Below are positions 37,473 through 45,961 of a stretch of DNA of 55,894 bases, one piece after another. The notes below the pieces were generated by a model that saw nothing but the letters and a program-made list of their open reading frames with translations, had not been told where the DNA came from and searched no databases. The number at the start of each line of letters is the position of its first letter. The first letter of the stretch is position 1. A program made the position numbers and the translations under genes. Source of the DNA: a virus (lineage: Duplodnaviria > Caudoviricetes); IMG/VR virus record IMGVR_UViG_3300030376_000535, positions 1 to 55,894 of that record; one strand, given 5' to 3'.

Positions 37473-38221
37473 ACTCCTTCTTCACAGAATATTCCACAAT
37501 CAACATCATAGTCTTTCATCTTATGTCCCTTTGCTTTAGGATCAAGATCTTCTAAAAAGATCCTTACATTCTTAACTCGCACTAACCTAGCACCAATCTC
37601 TTTAGACTGCTCCATCCTATCTTTAAATATCTCAGGGTGTTTTTCCCTGACAAAATTCCAATAGGTAGGTGATGTAGCTTTAACACATCCAATGCAGTTA
37701 GCATTAGAATAACCATTAAGGTACAAGCTAGGCAACCTTATTCCTGCATCCATAATTATATCAAAGCAGTGTTGTTTAGTGTAGCCCTTATCTATCAGTG
37801 GTGTAAGTAAACTTTCACGCTCAGTCATTCTAAACCTGTCTGCCCTGCCCTGTTCTTCTGCTGTAAATCCAAGCACAGTCCAATTAGGTTTATGTATTGC
37901 TTCCCAATCTTGTCTGGGTTTTTTCTTAAGTTCTTGCGTACATGGTGCACCACTAACTCCAGACATATATTTTCTATCATCCCATACTTCTTTTACAGAA
38001 CCTTTAGGATACCTGGCAGATCTTACATGTTCTATCGGATGGTCTAACCAATCCTGAACATCACGTAAAAATCTTTGATTGTCCTCACCTTCTTCAAGTA
38101 TAGGATTGTTAAGGATATGAATATCATTATCATTTCCATAGGTATCTAAAGTAACCTTAGCTGCTACAGCAGATGCAGCACCGCAAGAAAACCACACAGC
38201 TATCTTTTGGTCTTTCATCAT
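37463..38221 (-). CDS. PAPS-reductase-family (PP-loop) protein
   Basis: WFSCGAASAVA, CTQELKK, LGFTAEE, NCIGC, CGIFC. Confidence 0.75.
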   Translation of the reverse strand: MMKDQKIAVWFSCGAASAVAAKVTLDTYGNDNDIHILNNPILEEGEDNQRFLRDVQDWLDHPIEHVRSARYPKGSVKEVWDDRKYMSGVSGAPCTQELKKKPRQDWEAIHKPNWTVLGFTAEEQGRADRFRMTERESLLTPLIDKGYTKQHCFDIIMDAGIRLPSLYLNGYSNANCIGCVKATSPTYWNFVREKHPEIFKDRMEQSKEIGARLVRVKNVRIFLEDLDPKAKGHKMKDYDVDCGIFCEEGVWK

Positions 38222-39102
38222 TGTCTTTGTCTCCTCTCAAGAGCATTGCTTGCAGTTTTGAAACTGAATTTATTGTACGGATTTAGACTCGAAACATTCT
38301 TGTGGCCAGACACTGACTGAATAGCCAGATGATCTACTCCGCTTTCAATCATCTGAACTATCGCAGTCTTACGTAGATCCCCCACTCTCAGCTCGTCAGG
38401 AAGCCGTGCAATAGCCTTTACTTCTCCAAGCAGGGCAGTCATCTGCATAACTGTTAGGGGCTTGTATGCACCGTCTGAGGGCTTGTGGTGAGGGACTACG
38501 TATTCTTGAAAGTCCAAGTCTTGTTTCTGCTGAGATAACATCTCGAATAAATTATCTGGTATTGGTAATTCTACGGTAGCACCACGCTTGCTTTGCGTGA
38601 TAGTAACCTTGCGTTGCTCTAGGTCTACGCTATCCCACGTAAGATTGCGTATGTCCACAGGACGTTGACCCCACTCATAACACATCAACACAATTAGTCC
38701 AATGCTACGGTAATCAAAATTAGTAAATGCGACATCAAGAAAATCCATAACCTGATCGTGAGTCCATACGACAGAACGAGGGGTAGATGATCTCTTCTTA
38801 ACTCTTGCCATTGGATTATACAACAGTACATCAGTGGACACGAGATGGTTCATGAGAACGGAGAACACCCTTGCGTTATGGTTCGCATTGGAGGTAGAGG
38901 TTTCCGCTTCCCATGTATCGTATATCTCAATGCACATCAGAGAGTTTATCTTATCAACTCTAACATTACCAAGTGTCTTTCCCATAATAGACATACGACA
39001 ATAAGATGCCAGATTGTACTCGTAGTTCCTTTGAGTGGAGCGAGAGAGTGAAAGGAACTGACGAGTCCTTAAGTATTTATTTACAGCATCTTTTAATTTC
39101 AT
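38218..39102 (-). CDS. Tyrosine recombinase/integrase
   Basis: GQRPVD (R), QSKRG (K), GDLRKT, SGH, LNPY (Y). Confidence 0.88.
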   Translation of the reverse strand: MKLKDAVNKYLRTRQFLSLSRSTQRNYEYNLASYCRMSIMGKTLGNVRVDKINSLMCIEIYDTWEAETSTSNANHNARVFSVLMNHLVSTDVLLYNPMARVKKRSSTPRSVVWTHDQVMDFLDVAFTNFDYRSIGLIVLMCYEWGQRPVDIRNLTWDSVDLEQRKVTITQSKRGATVELPIPDNLFEMLSQQKQDLDFQEYVVPHHKPSDGAYKPLTVMQMTALLGEVKAIARLPDELRVGDLRKTAIVQMIESGVDHLAIQSVSGHKNVSSLNPYNKFSFKTASNALERRQRQ

Positions 39103-42349: not shown

Positions 42350-42745
42350 CTAGCTATCAAACCCTCGTAACTTTATCACTGGGGTTTCTGATTGAGTACT
42401 GATTGCATCAGCAATGTCATGCAGTTTGTTTTTCAACCACTGCTTATCCAAATCTGAGTTGGTCAGCCGAGTCTCAAGAGCTATAATACGAGCTTTCAAG
42501 TCACCATTTTCTTGCTTGGCAATCATGAAGTCTTTCGACTTACGCTTCTGCACAGTAGGTTGCAACTCCTCAGTATACAAATTGTAATTGAAGAATTTGT
42601 TACGATACCCAAGAGCATTACGCCATCTGTGTAAACTCTTTCTAGTAATACCATACTTGGCAATGGTTTGATCGCCAGTATGATTGTCGTAATACTTGCA
42701 AACCTCATGTTTGAACTCAATCGGAAATCTTGCACGTTTGTCCAT
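42350..42745 (-). CDS. HTH DNA-binding protein with coiled coil
   Basis: FPIEFK...TIAKYGITRKSLHRW. Confidence 0.65.
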   Translation of the reverse strand: MDKRARFPIEFKHEVCKYYDNHTGDQTIAKYGITRKSLHRWRNALGYRNKFFNYNLYTEELQPTVQKRKSKDFMIAKQENGDLKARIIALETRLTNSDLDKQWLKNKLHDIADAISTQSETPVIKLRGFDS

Positions 42746-43727: not shown

Positions 43728-44222
43728 TCACGCAATGATAGCTTTGAGTGCTTTGATCTTGTCCGCATCGACAACATCACCATCTTGCAAACCATCTTGA
43801 CGCCGTTTGTCTGCACGTGCAACCAGTGCAGCAATCATGTCGTCAAGGTTCATGGGTTTGTACTCAGGTTCTTTCTTGAACTCCCAAAACGGCGTAGCAC
43901 ACGCAGCCTTAGCATCATCAAGAGCAATCTTGGTACGCTTGGCATGATAAGCGAAGCACGAATTGTCAGCATCCCACACGAATGTGGCGAAAGCCTCAAC
44001 CCACGCTTTGAAGGCATTAGCACGAGCCATACTAGGTATAGCTTCAAGCAATGCGTTCATCTGGCGAACAGCAACAGACACGTCACTGCTCTCATGCCAA
44101 CGACGAACGATAGAACAAGCGGTGCGGTGTATGTCATTCTGAATAGACTTACCACGCTTACCGATTGAAACAATCATGTCGTCAATCTTTGCATCAGTTT
44201 TGATAAGAGAAATATTAGCCAT
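43728..44222 (-). CDS. First early gene, helical protein of unknown function
   Basis: GGAGGT RBS before ATG 44222. Confidence 0.75.
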   Translation of the reverse strand: MANISLIKTDAKIDDMIVSIGKRGKSIQNDIHRTACSIVRRWHESSDVSVAVRQMNALLEAIPSMARANAFKAWVEAFATFVWDADNSCFAYHAKRTKIALDDAKAACATPFWEFKKEPEYKPMNLDDMIAALVARADKRRQDGLQDGDVVDADKIKALKAIIA

Positions 44223-44237
44223 GTAAACCTCCAACGA

Positions 44238-44709
44238 TATAGCCTAACACCATGCACTCACCATGAATGCACAGTGCGAGCTATACCGTAGGCCACACAC
44301 AAACCACAGTGTATGCGGCCTATGGGTTTACTCACACGCAATGGGTGCAGGTCTCAGCTTTTATCCCATTGCATTTATGAAACTCAGAGAATTGGCGGCA
44401 TGTGGGTTGACAGGCATCGCATAGCATCGCTGGCAATTTTCAGCTGACGCACTAGCATTGATGCAAACGCACCACAATAACCAAAACTCGCAAGCCTTAC
44501 CGTCACCCCTAGAACGCACCAAGAATTAGGCACACGCTAGGACTTACAGCACTATCTTATTGGGCAGCACCACACCACCACCGATAAGGCATTGAGCCAC
44601 TCTCGAAAGAGTGTACTATAGGCGTTGGATGGTCTAGACGCACTCCCCCAATCCATCACAGACGGGATACAATCTATAGTCCAACTATGGTCAAATCTGA
44701 GTTTTGACT
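44238..44709 (-). ncRNA. Candidate hairpin-rich early leader or ncRNA
   Basis: About nine consecutive stem-loops; no ORF of 60 aa or more. Confidence 0.4.
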
Positions 44710-44776
44710 AACTCGATATTTGATGAACCTAGAATAACGAATAGAACCAAGAATAAAACAAAAAAGAATTGTTTAA

Positions 44777-44789
44777 AATCAATAGGTTA
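44777..44789 (+). promoter_or_regulatory. IHF site
   Basis: AATCAATAGGTTA matches WATCAANNNNTTR, with upstream A-tract. Confidence 0.6.
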
Positions 44790-44829
44790 TAAAATAGTTT
44801 ATATTCAACAAAATGAATATGACCACCAA

Positions 44830-44884
44830 GTTCTGGCGATGTTCTCATTCTGTTCTATGTTAGTGATTCGTTCCTGATTCGTTC
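44830..44884 (+). promoter_or_regulatory. Alphaproteobacterial LexA (SOS) boxes
   Basis: GTTC-N7-GTTC-N7-GTTC (44830-44855) and GTTC-N7-GTTC (44870-44884). Confidence 0.65.
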
Positions 44885-44963
44885 TCTTATTATATATAAT
44901 GTGTATCTGATTTAGGGGGGTATATTCTAGAATATGAATATTTGAATATGTTGTGCATCCTAG

Positions 44964-44980
44964 TTGCGAATGATTCGCAA
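44964..44980. promoter_or_regulatory. Fur/Mur-family-like box
   Basis: Perfect 8-1-8 palindrome TTGCGAAT-G-ATTCGCAA. Confidence 0.5.
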
Positions 44981-44988
44981 TATCAATA

Positions 44989-45013
44989 ATACCTTACTCT
45001 TTTAGTAGGATAT
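44989..45013. promoter_or_regulatory. IscR/Rrf2-type box
   Basis: ATACCTTACTCTTTTAGTAGGATAT, 21/25 match to ATASYYGACTRWWWYAGTCRRSTAT. Confidence 0.5.
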
Positions 45014-45240
45014 AATGTATTAGATAATGTTATATTGTATAAAATATATAATAAAAACAATAGTTTAGCCCTAGAAAACCCTGTCATATTCAAACATTCG
45101 AATACTTGAATGTGTTGCTAGGGGTAGGCATGGGGCATACGGGGGGTGTACGTTGCGTATATATGCTCAATGACAGAGATGGGGTTTTTTAAGTCTGTTA
45201 ACCACATGCTATATTAGGTCATACATGCTGACATATCTGT

Positions 45241-45256
45241 ATGTTATACTATAACA
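45241..45256. promoter_or_regulatory. Zur-like box
   Basis: ATGTTATA-C-TATAACA. Confidence 0.55.
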
Positions 45257-45290
45257 CCCCTATTTCATTAGATAATAGCAGTAATAGGTA

Positions 45291-45318
45291 AGACATTATG
45301 ACCTATATTATGTAAATC
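45291..45318 (+). other. dif-like (XerCD) site
   Basis: AGACATTATGA-CCTATA-TTATGTAAATC. Confidence 0.35.
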
Positions 45319-45498
45319 TTGTAGGAAGCCCCAGGAATTACGTTATCTTTGTCCTGGACGTAGGGTACTAGGGGAGTCTATTGCGTTATTCTGGGGGCAT
45401 CTCTGGGGTTCCTGGATGTATTTCGTGGTGTTATCCTAAATATACGACAAAACAGCCAGACTTTACCGATATTTTTAAAAAATATTTTGTCGTACCCC

Positions 45499-45528
45499 TT
45501 GACAGCGGGGCGTAATGTGATATATAAT
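45499..45528 (+). promoter_or_regulatory. sigma70 promoter, late arm
   Basis: TTGACA-N18-TATAAT. Confidence 0.65.
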
Positions 45529-45673
45529 ATACTTAATGTATTACATTACGCTTAACTCTAACTTTATTATTACTTTAATATATAGTAATATTAATACTTA
45601 TAGTAATACTTAAAGTAATACTTCTAGTACGTACACTCGCTCAAACTTTTTTCTGTCGTATCAAGAAAAAGTG

Positions 45674-45703
45674 TTGACCTTAGTGGACAAAAAGGTATAA
45701 CTA
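45674..45703 (+). promoter_or_regulatory. sigma70-type promoter
   Basis: TTGACC-N16-TATAACTA. Confidence 0.55.
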
Positions 45704-45706
45704 AGG

Positions 45707-45961
45707 ATGTCCAAATCAAAACTGTACTCTTCAGACAAAGTGATAGAAGAGTTCTACAAAGCTTTAGCCGACAAAAACGAATCAAAGGTACGTAGGGTAC
45801 ACATACCACGTTCAGATGTATTCTATATACGAGAAAAAATTCACCAAGATACTGGCATACGATATTCACTCGACAGAGTAGAGCGAGCTATGTATCTTGA
45901 AGGACATCTCAGCAGATACGATGTCTTAGATCCTGACAGAAAAAGGAAGTGGGAAGAATGA
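45707..45961 (+). CDS. Hypothetical protein
   Basis: First ORF of the late arm. Confidence 0.7.
   Translation: MSKSKLYSSDKVIEEFYKALADKNESKVRRVHIPRSDVFYIREKIHQDTGIRYSLDRVERAMYLEGHLSRYDVLDPDRKRKWEE

Follow-up and report, generated by a model that had tools for sequence, protein, structure and literature searches.

In the Bacillus phage GIL01, the lysogeny switch is described as being run by the LexA protein of the host (PMC4551915). The likeness to the locus studied here lies in a temperate phage without a classical repressor, in which SOS boxes in the control region let the host repressor hold transcription; the account given there is of one host regulator acting with a phage co-factor, whereas here at least four operator classes, together with IHF sites, are predicted from sequence alone. 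Phages of Alphaproteobacteria are reported to carry conserved CtrA-binding sites (PMC9437464). The likeness in that case is that sites for a host global regulator are described as timing phage gene expression, and the difference is that a single cell-cycle regulator is involved, in other phage groups. Host metalloregulators also control genes carried by phages: stx1 is under Fur, and tox of corynephage beta is under DtxR. In both, as at the present locus, the operator of a host metal-sensing repressor is found on phage DNA, but one cargo gene is controlled, while here the boxes are located in a putative core control/origin region with no adjoining cargo. The origin of phage lambda contains four palindromic iterons and an AT-rich region, and the primary origin of T7 contains promoters and an AT-rich region. 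Our locus likewise has palindromes in several copies, together with a promoter-like element and an AT-rich stretch, at a replication-type asymmetry switch; it differs from them in that no initiator gene is recognised and several unrelated repeat classes are scattered across 500 bp.

Phages of the HMO-2011 type have been described as a viral group that is both dominant and widespread in the sea (PMC9038755). Their known hosts are SAR116 and Roseobacter. One of them, CRP-3, integrates at a tRNA-Met gene and is the only member reported to integrate (PMC6918029). In the main texts of the two papers on the group, the terms attP, origin of replication, non-coding and terminal repeat are absent, and intergenic refers to host rRNA spacers. 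We found no published account, in phages, of a host-operator control region such as the one proposed here. We tentatively read a 550-bp non-coding region of one such phage as the core of a central control region gated by host repressors and IHF, and possibly also as an origin; we regard this as the best of the readings considered, though at slightly less than even odds.

Genome context and features of the region

The window, that is, the whole stretch of DNA analysed (55,894 nucleotides), is the record IMGVR_UViG_3300030376_000535, a 55.9-kb genome with a G+C content of 40%, obtained as a circular assembly whose ends overlap by 77 bp, the record start falling within an ORF. The phage is an integrase-bearing marine podovirus of the HMO-2011 type and encodes a T7-like primase-helicase and a family A polymerase. 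Positions 44770-45320, called the region below, form the central part of a non-coding gap of 1,472 bp that separates two divergent gene arms, with replication genes leftward and lysis, packaging and structural genes rightward; the minimum of the cumulative GC skew and the divergence of the arms coincide with the region. An earlier note on this DNA had described about 550 bp here as non-coding, and the sole overlapping ORF of at least 40 aa is indeed a 57-aa TTG frame (44704-44877). A blastn search with 44200-45750 gave zero matches among 50,697 phage records. Assignment of a host through the capsid protein was tried and rejected: the close matches proved to be phage contigs that had ended up in MAGs of unrelated phyla through binning, and the matches to Marivivens and Rhodovulum MAGs were weak.

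A sequence scan of the window located the IHF, ATTC-N8-GAAT, GTTC-N7-GTTC and IscR-like motifs and the two perfect palindromes at the places claimed by the earlier note. The features considered in this work are the following.

38218-39102, minus strand: tyrosine integrase, Xer-like, 294 aa (PF00589, E 1.3e-20)
44235-44700, minus strand: conserved left part of the gap (conserved blocks in 10 relatives)
44777-44789, plus strand: exact IHF-consensus site with an A-tract before it (consensus match)
44803-44818, no strand: ATTC-N8-GAAT box 1, extended ATATTCA-N6-TGAATAT, SqrR/ArsR-type palindrome (sequence scan)
44830-44884, plus strand: five GTTC direct repeats, at 44830, 44841, 44852, 44870 and 44881 (11-bp phasing)
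44895-44900, plus strand: TATAAT, -10-like (read from the sequence; not called by the promoter scan)
44924-44950, no strand: ATTC-N8-GAAT box 2 with further GAATAT half-sites (sequence scan)
44964-44980, no strand: perfect 8-1-8 palindrome TTGCGAAT-G-ATTCGCAA, predicted Fur-family (Mur/Zur-type) operator (single genome copy)
44989-45013, no strand: imperfect palindrome, IscR type-1-like (21/25 positions)
45034-45067, plus strand: AT-rich conserved block with a second, one-mismatch IHF-like site (repeat family D1)
45088-45111, no strand: overlapping ATTC-N8-GAAT boxes 3 and 4 (45088 and 45096), directly upstream of block H
45119-45208, plus strand: block H, 90 bp, the most conserved non-coding element (alignment of relatives)
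45242-45256, no strand: perfect 7-1-7 palindrome TGTTATA-C-TATAACA, predicted Zur box (single genome copy)
45499-45528, plus strand: predicted rightward sigma-70 promoter, perfect consensus TTGACA-18-TATAAT (promoter scan, 12/12)

The exact IHF site fits the IHF consensus, which we take to be WATCAANNNNTTR with an A/T-rich upstream tract, and the one-mismatch site (45055-45067) belongs to a segment, 45034-45067, that is a direct-repeat copy of 44768-44801. The four ATTC-N8-GAAT boxes (44803, 44924, 45088 and 45096) are all the copies in the genome, as are the three GTTC-N7-GTTC boxes (44830, 44841 and 44870) that the five GTTC repeats form. The third GTTC box overlies the -35 region of the conserved TATAAT at 44895-44900, a leftward promoter-like site, TTGATA-18-TAGGAT, has the TTGCGAAT-G-ATTCGCAA palindrome in its spacer, and a candidate CTGACA-16-TATAAC, seen by eye, lies over the Zur box, its -35 being lost in relatives. 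The AT-rich stretch has a GC fraction of 0.20-0.26, with values of 0.20-0.24 in the 50-bp bins from 44985 to 45084. The best genome-wide match to the 25-nt sequence that we take to be the IscR type-1 consensus is 44989-45013, with 21/25 positions. Among assembled Logan contigs of four sequencing runs, strain variants with additional GTTC repeats were observed, together with a loose contig end at 44881 and one variant in which 44904-44957 is replaced.

Comparison with chance and with host operators

The motif counts were compared with 5000 dinucleotide shuffles of 44770-45320, and the motif density is higher than in shuffled sequence. The four ATTC-N8-GAAT boxes stand against a shuffle mean of 0.014 and the three GTTC-N7-GTTC boxes against a mean of 0.004, with neither count reached in any of the 5000 shuffles; perfect palindromes (arms of at least 7, spacer 0-1) number three against a mean of 0.21, a count reached in 7/5000. 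An IscR match of at least 21/25 was obtained in 1/2000 mononucleotide shuffles. The IHF consensus alone is at chance level (1 in the region against a mean of 0.088; 412/5000 shuffles), and with one mismatch it gives 84 matches genome-wide against 93.75 expected; since its frequency alone is at chance level, the support for the IHF site comes from positional conservation.

For the operators, the comparison set consisted of Rhodobacteraceae genomes alone, a restriction that, with the 40% G+C of the phage, counts against the control-region reading. The word TGTTATA-N-TATAACA is found exactly in 33 of 301 genomes, compared to 1 of 301 for the reversed control, and the 48 ORFs flanking it include CobW (9), ZnuA (5), Fur family (4), PRA-CH (3), ZrgA (2) and ZinT (1). 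The palindrome at 45242-45256 is, as judged from its sequence, a Zur box, the same word as the host sites beside zinc-uptake genes. The pattern TTGCRAAT-N-ATTYGCAA occurs in 22/301 genomes, with one copy each and 0 in the reversed control, and in 17 of these 22 a metal ABC substrate-binding gene (cluster A-I) starts alongside, its NCBIfam matches being family-level and below the equivalog cut-offs. The palindrome at 44964-44980 thus fits a Fur-family (Mur/Zur-type) operator of metal (Mn/Fe or Zn) ABC uptake operons. Separately, one short match of the gap in Rhodobacteraceae genomes pointed to the Mur-type palindrome.

The ATTC-N8-GAAT pattern corresponds to the inverted repeat described as the sqr box of SqrR/BigR, of the ArsR family (bioRxiv 10.1101/2020.03.22.001966), and the GTTC-N7-GTTC direct repeat to the alphaproteobacterial SOS (LexA) box as listed in Table 1 of PMC9578287, so that the patterns of the window agree with published operator patterns for both of these assignments. 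The form TATTC-N8-GAATA is present in 94 of 151 Rhodobacteraceae genomes, well above the reversed control, and 8 of the 30 sites listed extend to ATATTC-N8-GAATAT, the form found in the window. Among the 44 ORFs flanking it, seven Pfam matches are possibly sulfur-related, two of them perhaps on one ORF: Pyr_redox_2 on two ORFs, and BLH_phosphatase, Lactamase_B, Sulf_transp, Sulfate_transp and STAS_2 on one each. The GTTC array follows the alphaproteobacterial SOS-box pattern and could equally be a set of iterons. The earlier assignment of the motifs to host regulators stands for Zur and Fur/Mur, whose single-copy counterparts in Rhodobacteraceae genomes are beside zinc-uptake and metal-transporter genes, and is not supported for IscR, the pattern derived from that site being found in just 1/301 Rhodobacteraceae genomes.

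A different reading, somewhat unlikely in our judgement, is that a phage-encoded origin initiator and/or immunity-type regulators bind the palindromes and repeats, in which case the region would be an iteron-type origin with operators of the usual sort and the likeness to host operators coincidence or mimicry. Two of the palindromes are, however, letter for letter host operators with the expected neighbour genes, and binding at four unrelated motif classes would call for several DNA-binding proteins encoded by the phage. Pfam scans of 56 phage ORFs, out of 73, turned up neither a Fur, ArsR or LexA-like protein nor the signature of such a fold, and no replication initiator was recognised. A small protein encoded at 42350-42745 gave a weak HTH-like match. 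The proteins neighbouring the gap have no sequence relatives in the PDB and matched unnamed viral clusters alone in the Atlas, a 0.80 match to a phage repressor family being at chance level; the AlphaFold model of the left-flanking protein has a mean pLDDT of 55.5. The many small ORFs of no known function speak for phage-encoded binding proteins.

Conservation in related phages

Two sets of relatives were used, a clade set of 36 non-redundant related contigs and a close set of 10 relatives. The idea that relatives keep the motifs while the spacers diverge, put forward in the earlier note, holds within the phage's clade (n = 36), where the motif classes are kept at fixed positions around the 90-bp block. 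ATTC-N8-GAAT occurs 54 times in 32.4 kb of region and once in 343.9 kb elsewhere in the loci of the 36 members. The corresponding counts in the region and in the remainder of the loci are 22 and 4 for GTTC-N7-GTTC, 27 and 4 for the Zur box (at most two mismatches), and 19 and 27 for IHF sites; the members carrying each motif number 14/36, 21/36 and 17/36, respectively. A Zur-like palindrome is located 144-183 bp before block H in 18/36 clade members, and one or two ATTC-N8-GAAT boxes 56-122 bp before it in 11/36. The pair of an IHF site and an ATTC box recurs, and in the close set the IHF site is kept at the same place, 22-26 nt before the box, in 7/10 relatives. An ATTC box occupies the place of box 1 in the window and in 8/10 relatives, the exceptions being L009 and the cut L010, and TAYAATG after the first box is retained in 8/10.

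As a trait of the whole phage group, the cassette is not supported: no Zur, Mur or LexA motif occurs in the corresponding gap of HMO-2011 or of five roseophages of the same type in culture, and ATTC-N8-GAAT boxes are present in 2 of these 6. Since cultured phages of Rhodobacteraceae lack the motif set, a phage of this type can do without the cassette on hosts of that family, which counts against the control-region reading and favours phage-encoded binding proteins. The palindrome type also switches between close lineages at fixed positions, with a Zur-type box or TGTGATCACA where the window has its Mur-type box, and with CTATCC-N4-GGATAG in place of the multi-copy ATTC boxes in sister lineages. 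Different multi-copy palindromes at the same positions in close lineages, whose flanking genes are 72-89% identical in protein, are likewise in favour of phage-encoded binders, since such switching is also expected from co-evolving binding proteins of the phage. On the other hand, no gene varying in step with the palindrome type was found among the ORFs flanking the gap. The CTATCC-N4-GGATAG palindrome, moreover, is also clustered in host polysaccharide gene clusters, with clusters of 2-3 exact copies in three Rhodobacteraceae genomes, which argues against a phage-encoded binder; with one mismatch, its forward counts in hosts are about equal to the control counts.

Up to 8 ATTC boxes per region are found among clade members. 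This is more than a simple operator needs and counts against a control region, and it would suit a decoy, in which replicated operator arrays titrate host repressors and turn on the genes for zinc and manganese/iron uptake, SOS and sulfide oxidation. We consider such a decoy improbable. That operators in multicopy titrate Fur is the principle of an established assay; every regulator named here is a repressor that titration would relieve, and several repressor operators stand together with no matching genes nearby. With no greater probability, such a sponge would need no phage gene product, in a host that would be a small, regulator-poor marine cell, and the arrays of the sister lineages, being of the operator type of polysaccharide clusters, would also reprogramme surface polysaccharide, an extension for which we see equally little likelihood. 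A sponge, however, has no need of conserved spacing around block H and promoter-like elements, and the Zur and Mur boxes are present in single copy.

The earlier note had also placed the motifs at the probable genome end, one of its options being a pad that protects this end. A physical end of the genome, with the terminus coated or protected by host proteins, is hardly credible. Related contigs number about 55, of which at least 11 stop 2-650 bp upstream of block H, and cultured relatives have GenBank records whose cut falls within the equivalent gap, but the contigs break at non-homologous positions, which strain variation in the repeats explains better, and record starts are set by annotators' convention. 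The window is, in addition, a circular assembly whose overlap is elsewhere, and HMO-2011 is filed as circular. For the end-protecting pad we found nothing in favour.

Block H, probable leader and candidate promoters

Block H contains runs of G or C, a core in which purines and pyrimidines alternate, AATGACAG, a G-run with a T-run after it, and TGTTAACCAC. It is about 80-86% identical in relatives whose flanks do not align, it is present in about 55 of 99 pattern matches among viral contigs, and a diverged form is found in HMO-2011. No full CtrA box was seen by eye, the tail of block H being TTAA-N5-TTAAC, whose spacing is not N7. Block H showed no consensus RNA fold on either strand, no Rfam match and no match in bacterial genomes. 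It may be the core of an origin. For an origin with a phage-encoded initiator, the 4-8 copies of one palindrome and the 11-bp-phased GTTC repeats beside the AT-rich stretch resemble iterons with an unwinding element, and the region is at the strand switch and the GC-skew minimum; against an iteron origin, DnaA-box-like words are not enriched, with 3.4 per kb in the gap compared to 2.5 per kb in the genome.

The conserved left part of the gap, 44235-44700, which is outside the 550 bp, probably forms a structured leader for the operon read leftward (replication). RNAalifold gave -32 kcal for the minus strand compared to -11.5 for the plus strand at 44235-44316, and -28.8 compared to -12.6 at 44400-44543. 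The predicted rightward promoter at 45499-45528 is kept in 10/10 relatives, and in many clade members it comes 310-350 bp downstream of block H; palindromes of the TACTTAAAGTA type (45529-45625) and a further promoter-like site (45674-45701) follow it. Most of the candidate promoters, however, are weak and escaped the promoter scan, which counts against the control-region reading.

Assembled contigs from RNA libraries lie over 44336-44671, which is a weak hint, and one such contig spans 44916-45148 at a depth of 52, an assembled contig being unable to show transcripts. Three assembled contigs stop near 44703-44705, and these cannot show ends. A non-coding RNA was considered and rejected, with no Rfam family at the gathering score or at E up to 10, and no tRNA.

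Integrase and possible attachment site

The integrase is 42.7% identical to that of HMO-2011, its NCBIfam matches of the Xer type are all below their cut-offs, and it is present in 10 of the 11 clade loci that reach far enough. It possibly marks the phage as temperate. That the region is attP, or another recombination site of this Xer-like enzyme with IHF in an architectural role, seems to us decidedly improbable. Such a site would agree with the presence and retention of the integrase, with the IHF-type sites of the region, with the layout of ATATTCA-N6-TGAATAT, which has the inverted arms and 6-bp spacer of a core-type site, and with the integration of CRP-3, of the same group, at a tRNA-Met gene (PMC6918029). 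The integrase gene is, however, 5 kb distant, and at 294 aa the protein is too short for an arm-binding domain. The gap contains no tRNA-like T-arm and gave no tRNA or Rfam match. Its matches in 401 Rhodobacteraceae genomes are of at most 47 nt, with a best E of 4.6e-4, about the level of chance, the true host perhaps not being sampled among them, and two conserved-block patterns gave 0 matches in 185,579 species genomes.

Discussion

The clustering of the motifs, the identity of the Zur and Fur-family palindromes with host operators and the conservation of positions around block H are the observations on which a control region gated by host repressors is proposed. The promoter context of the third GTTC box and of the Mur-type box, the lack of Fur, ArsR or LexA-like proteins among the ORFs scanned, the integrase and the location at the divergence of the arms and the GC-skew minimum also speak for it. 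From this evidence we infer that host proteins bind the sites, that the promoters are active and that transcription or replication is affected. The region would hold operators for Zur, for a Mur/Fur-type regulator, for a SqrR-type ArsR regulator and for LexA, plus IHF bending sites, set at fixed positions around the conserved 90-bp block and the AT-rich stretch. In an unstressed, metal-replete cell, the host repressors and IHF would occupy these sites and silence the internal promoters, and perhaps transcription-primed replication from the region as well. When the cell ran short of zinc or of manganese/iron, met sulfide or persulfide stress or suffered DNA damage, the matching repressor would come off and the switch would open. 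With an integrase and no recognisable repressor gene in the phage, the lytic decision or induction would be coupled to the state of the host. Among the three options of the earlier note, a sensor of host state is the best fit.

Our analysis suggests that the phage reads host stress via the host's own repressors for zinc, manganese/iron, sulfide and DNA damage. If true, the precedents with a single regulator (LexA, CtrA, Fur, PhoB) would be joined by a switch with several inputs, and phage development would be linked directly, in a way open to test, to the trace-metal and stress status of ocean bacteria.

Organization of the phage genome

The 55,894 bp record has an estimated completeness of 100% as a whole virus; its first 77 bases are identical to its last 77 and base 1 falls inside an ORF, so that it corresponds to a circular assembly that was cut arbitrarily. 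The genes form two divergent arms, and the minimum of the cumulative GC skew falls within the gap between them.

45707 to 26759 across the record ends, plus strand: rightward arm with small genes, endolysin, terminase, portal and capsid
44234 to 27262, minus strand: leftward arm with primase-helicase, family A DNA polymerase, ribonucleotide reductase, ThyX, MazG and tyrosine integrase
38218-39102: Xer-like tyrosine integrase of 294 aa, from profile matches
44235-45706: gene-free gap of 1,472 bp between the arms, holding at its middle the non-coding region studied here (44770-45320)

The NCBIfam XerA, XerC and XerD matches of the integrase were all far under the cut-offs. This protein shares 42.7% identity with the integrase of Puniceispirillum phage HMO-2011 and about 42% with its counterparts in roseophages CRP-207 and CRP-2, and the nearest polymerase is that of roseophage CRP-6 (54%), which identifies the phage as an HMO-2011-type podovirus. 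The hosts named for this group in two of its papers are SAR116 and Roseobacter RCA bacteria, and integration into a tRNA-Met gene was demonstrated there for CRP-3 (PMC9038755, PMC6918029). That the region is an attP appears highly unlikely: the integrase gene is 5 kb off, the gap contains no tRNA-like word, and no core is in common with 401 Rhodobacteraceae genomes. Whole phage contigs of the same type (capsid protein 70-81% identical) were also observed in MAG records with bacterial and archaeal labels (Neomarinimicrobiota, Methanobacteriota, Bacteroidetes, Blastopirellula), which are probably due to mis-binning and do not indicate the host. No Fur, ArsR or LexA-like protein was found among the 56 of 73 phage ORFs scanned against Pfam; the other 17 are large structural or replication genes, of which 8 were scanned against PHROGs.

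Motif density and host operator types

The region had been described in an earlier note as a dense array of sites for many host proteins, and each motif tested was found where that note had placed it.

44777: exact IHF consensus (sequence match)
45055: one-mismatch copy of the IHF consensus (sequence match)
44964-44980: perfect Mur-type palindrome TTGCGAAT-G-ATTCGCAA
44989-45013: IscR type-1-like site, 21/25 match to the consensus
45242-45256: perfect Zur-type palindrome TGTTATA-C-TATAACA

All four ATTC-N8-GAAT boxes and all three GTTC-N7-GTTC boxes of the genome lie in the region. This density exceeds chance, since among 5000 dinucleotide shuffles of its 551 bp none reached the observed count of ATTC boxes and none that of GTTC boxes, and only 7 contained three perfect palindromes with arms of at least 7. 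The IHF consensus taken alone was not above chance. The region also has an AT-rich stretch with a GC of 0.20-0.26.

We then searched for the motifs in Rhodobacteraceae genomes, as the hosts of the cultured roseophages belong to this family, with the reversed pattern as control. Exact TGTTATA-N-TATAACA was present in 33/301 genomes compared to 1/301 for the control. The 48 ORFs beside 30 of these sites included CobW (9), CobW_C (8), ZnuA (5), Fur family (4), PRA-CH (3), ZrgA (2), ABC ATPases (2) and ZinT (1) proteins, which make up a zinc regulon, and the word is thus a Zur box, as had been proposed. TTGCRAAT-N-ATTYGCAA occurred as one copy each in 22/301 genomes (control 0), and 17 of these have the start of a metal substrate-binding gene (cluster A-I) within about 150 bp; the NCBIfam matches of that gene (EfaA, MntC and AztC types) are at family level only and under the curated cut-offs. 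From this neighbourhood the pattern is a Fur-family operator, of either a Mur or a Zur regulator, in agreement with the Fur/Mur assignment of 44964-44980. TATTC-N8-GAATA was found in 94/151 genomes, well over the control, and 8 of the 30 sites listed extended to ATATTC..GAATAT, the form of the window. Of the 44 ORFs flanking SqrR-type sites, only a handful had matches to families that may relate to sulfur (two Pyr_redox_2, BLH_phosphatase, Lactamase_B, Sulf_transp and Sulfate_transp), which is no more than suggestive of a host sulfur operator. Motif patterns in the region agree with the published SqrR box (bioRxiv 10.1101/2020.03.22.001966) and Caulobacter SOS box (PMC9578287); the SqrR and LexA assignments therefore hold as matches to published patterns, with SqrR neighbour genes that are not decisive. 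The IscR assignment found no support, as the pattern built from 44989-45013 occurred in only 1/301 genomes.

Conservation in relatives

Ten relatives were retrieved via the left-flanking protein (68-98% identity, best aligned segment). The whole gap was present in nine of them (1.36-1.6 kb) and was cut by the contig end in the tenth, L010. Distant relatives aligned at three islands only, 44404-44586, 45119-45208 (block H, the most conserved non-coding element) and the promoter region starting near 45430. We also compared, in 36 non-redundant clade members including the window, the 900 bp around block H with the remaining locus.

Motif counts around block H (32.4 kb in total) and outside (343.9 kb); the outside sequence is mostly coding and is thus no AT-matched control
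Motif; region; outside; members with motif
ATTC-N8-GAAT; 54; 1; 19/36
GTTC-N7-GTTC; 22; 4; 14/36
Zur-type palindrome, up to 2 mismatches; 27; 4; 21/36
Zur-type palindrome, exact; 5; 2; 5/36
IHF consensus; 19; 27; 17/36
Mur-type palindrome, up to 3 mismatches; 5; 3; 4/36
Mur-type palindrome, exact; 2; 0; 2/36

Within this clade the motif set is kept while the spacers diverge. In 18/36 members block H is preceded at 144-183 bp by a Zur-like palindrome, the window differing by a Mur-type box at -193 and its own Zur box at +85, and in 11/36 it is preceded at 56-122 bp by 1-2 ATTC boxes. An IHF site followed 22-26 nt on by an ATTC box is a recurring pair, and a strong promoter is found 310-350 bp after block H. 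Zur, Mur and LexA motifs were all absent from the 0.9-1.5-kb gap of five cultured HMO-2011-type roseophages and HMO-2011, and of these six, CRP-2 and CRP-603 alone carry two ATTC boxes along with IHF sites. The cassette is therefore confined to one clade and is not a trait of the entire group, which counts against a reading by host regulators.

In the relative L009, TTTAGAA-TAG-TTCTAAG replaces, at the equivalent of 44800 or so, the first ATTC box of other relatives; it resembles the Irr iron-control element. In the marine DNA run X1, the contig of a strain variant goes on at 44881 with extra GTTCTCAT-type (GTTC) repeats, and in another contig 52 bp carrying the second ATTC box (44904-44957) are swapped for 19 different letters. 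Within populations the region is hypervariable.

The region had also been placed at a probable genome end, which would be protected by bound host proteins. At least 11 of about 55 related contigs do stop 2-650 bp before block H, but at non-homologous positions, and the strain variants account for such assembly breaks; with a circular record, this reading is hardly credible.

Block H, predicted promoters and probable leader

A pattern derived from block H gave 99 stretches in viral contigs, about 55 with the entire block. This non-coding element of about 90 bp is common to some 55 marine viral contigs (loci L012-L110), and in some lineages its second G-run becomes a C-run, which would allow a hairpin. 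We found for block H no consensus RNA fold, no Rfam match and no bacterial-genome counterpart; no reading as RNA fold, promoter or terminator suits all members. In HMO-2011 the block has diverged, and a strong promoter of the same kind comes after it.

45499-45528, rightward: perfect promoter TTGACA-18-TATAAT, kept in 10/10 relatives
45529-45625: at least three TACTTAAAGTA-type palindromes, in 10/10 relatives

A second promoter-like site to the right is also retained in 10/10 relatives, and the palindromes, which lie between the two promoters and have CACTTAAGTG-type equivalents in HMO-2011, are probably operators of early rightward promoters. On the other side, the minus strand gives a much better fold for 44235-44700 than the plus strand does, and the leftward operon probably has its leader here. 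The minus-strand consensus folds of 44235-44316 (-32 kcal) and 44400-44543 (-28.8 kcal) are much stronger than those of the plus strand; both segments are strongly conserved immediately upstream of the first leftward gene and may form a structured leader, or else a small RNA, for the replication arm.

Palindrome exchange and candidate control region

The palindrome type switches at fixed positions between close lineages. Lineages with a left-flanking protein 71-89% identical to that of the window carry many CTATCC-N4-GGATAG palindromes and TGTGATCACA at the places of the ATTC boxes and Mur-type box, the former in L004, L005, L007, L008 and L011 at the equivalent of 44830-45100. Exchanges of this kind are characteristic of specificity pairs encoded by phages and would favour phage-encoded binders acting at an ordinary iteron origin. 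However, no flanking ORF varies in step with the palindrome type, and exact CTATCC-N4-GGATAG copies form groups of 2-3 in polysaccharide-synthesis clusters, which also contain response regulators, of three Rhodobacteraceae genomes (L301-L303). The alternative palindrome may thus likewise be a host operator type, in a search that allowed one mismatch and hence yields no usable statistic. We consider phage-encoded binders unlikely, with an appreciable chance still. Up to 8 ATTC boxes per region exceed the need of a plain operator and count against host operators; a decoy titrating host repressors appears rather improbable.

Three operators sit, as read from the sequence, where a repressor would block a candidate promoter. 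The third GTTC box covers the -35 region of a TATAAT (44895-44900) kept in 8/10 relatives, the Mur-type box falls within the spacer of a promoter-like site that points leftward, and the Zur box contains TATAAC with CTGACA 16 nt upstream (read by eye). Taking this layout together with the IHF sites, block H, the AT-rich stretch, the position at the strand switch and the T7-like replication genes, we tentatively propose, as a reading just short of probable, a control region gated by host repressors that may also contain a transcription-primed origin; we infer the binding, the promoters and the origin activity. Host repressors would hold the region shut, and a lack of zinc or of manganese/iron would open it, as would sulfide stress or damage to the DNA. 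The read data consisted of assembled contigs, of which one from an RNA library spans 44916-45148 (depth 52) and three end near 44703-44705. This is what one would expect if a transcript ran rightward from the TATAAT and another started leftward; as contigs cannot show starts, ends or strand, they were not counted as evidence.

Fur and DtxR are host regulators that act on phage-borne toxin genes. LexA is described as a host regulator acting on phage DNA in GIL01 (PMC4551915), and CtrA sites are reported in alphaproteobacterial phages (PMC9437464). Each of these cases involves one host regulator, whereas the region combines several repressor operator classes with IHF. The two main papers on the group and the literature searched gave no description of a conserved multi-class operator cluster with IHF in the core control region of a marine phage clade. 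Control of phage DNA by one host regulator is thus well known, and a cluster of several repressor operator classes with IHF in an abundant marine clade appears, within the literature searched, to be new.
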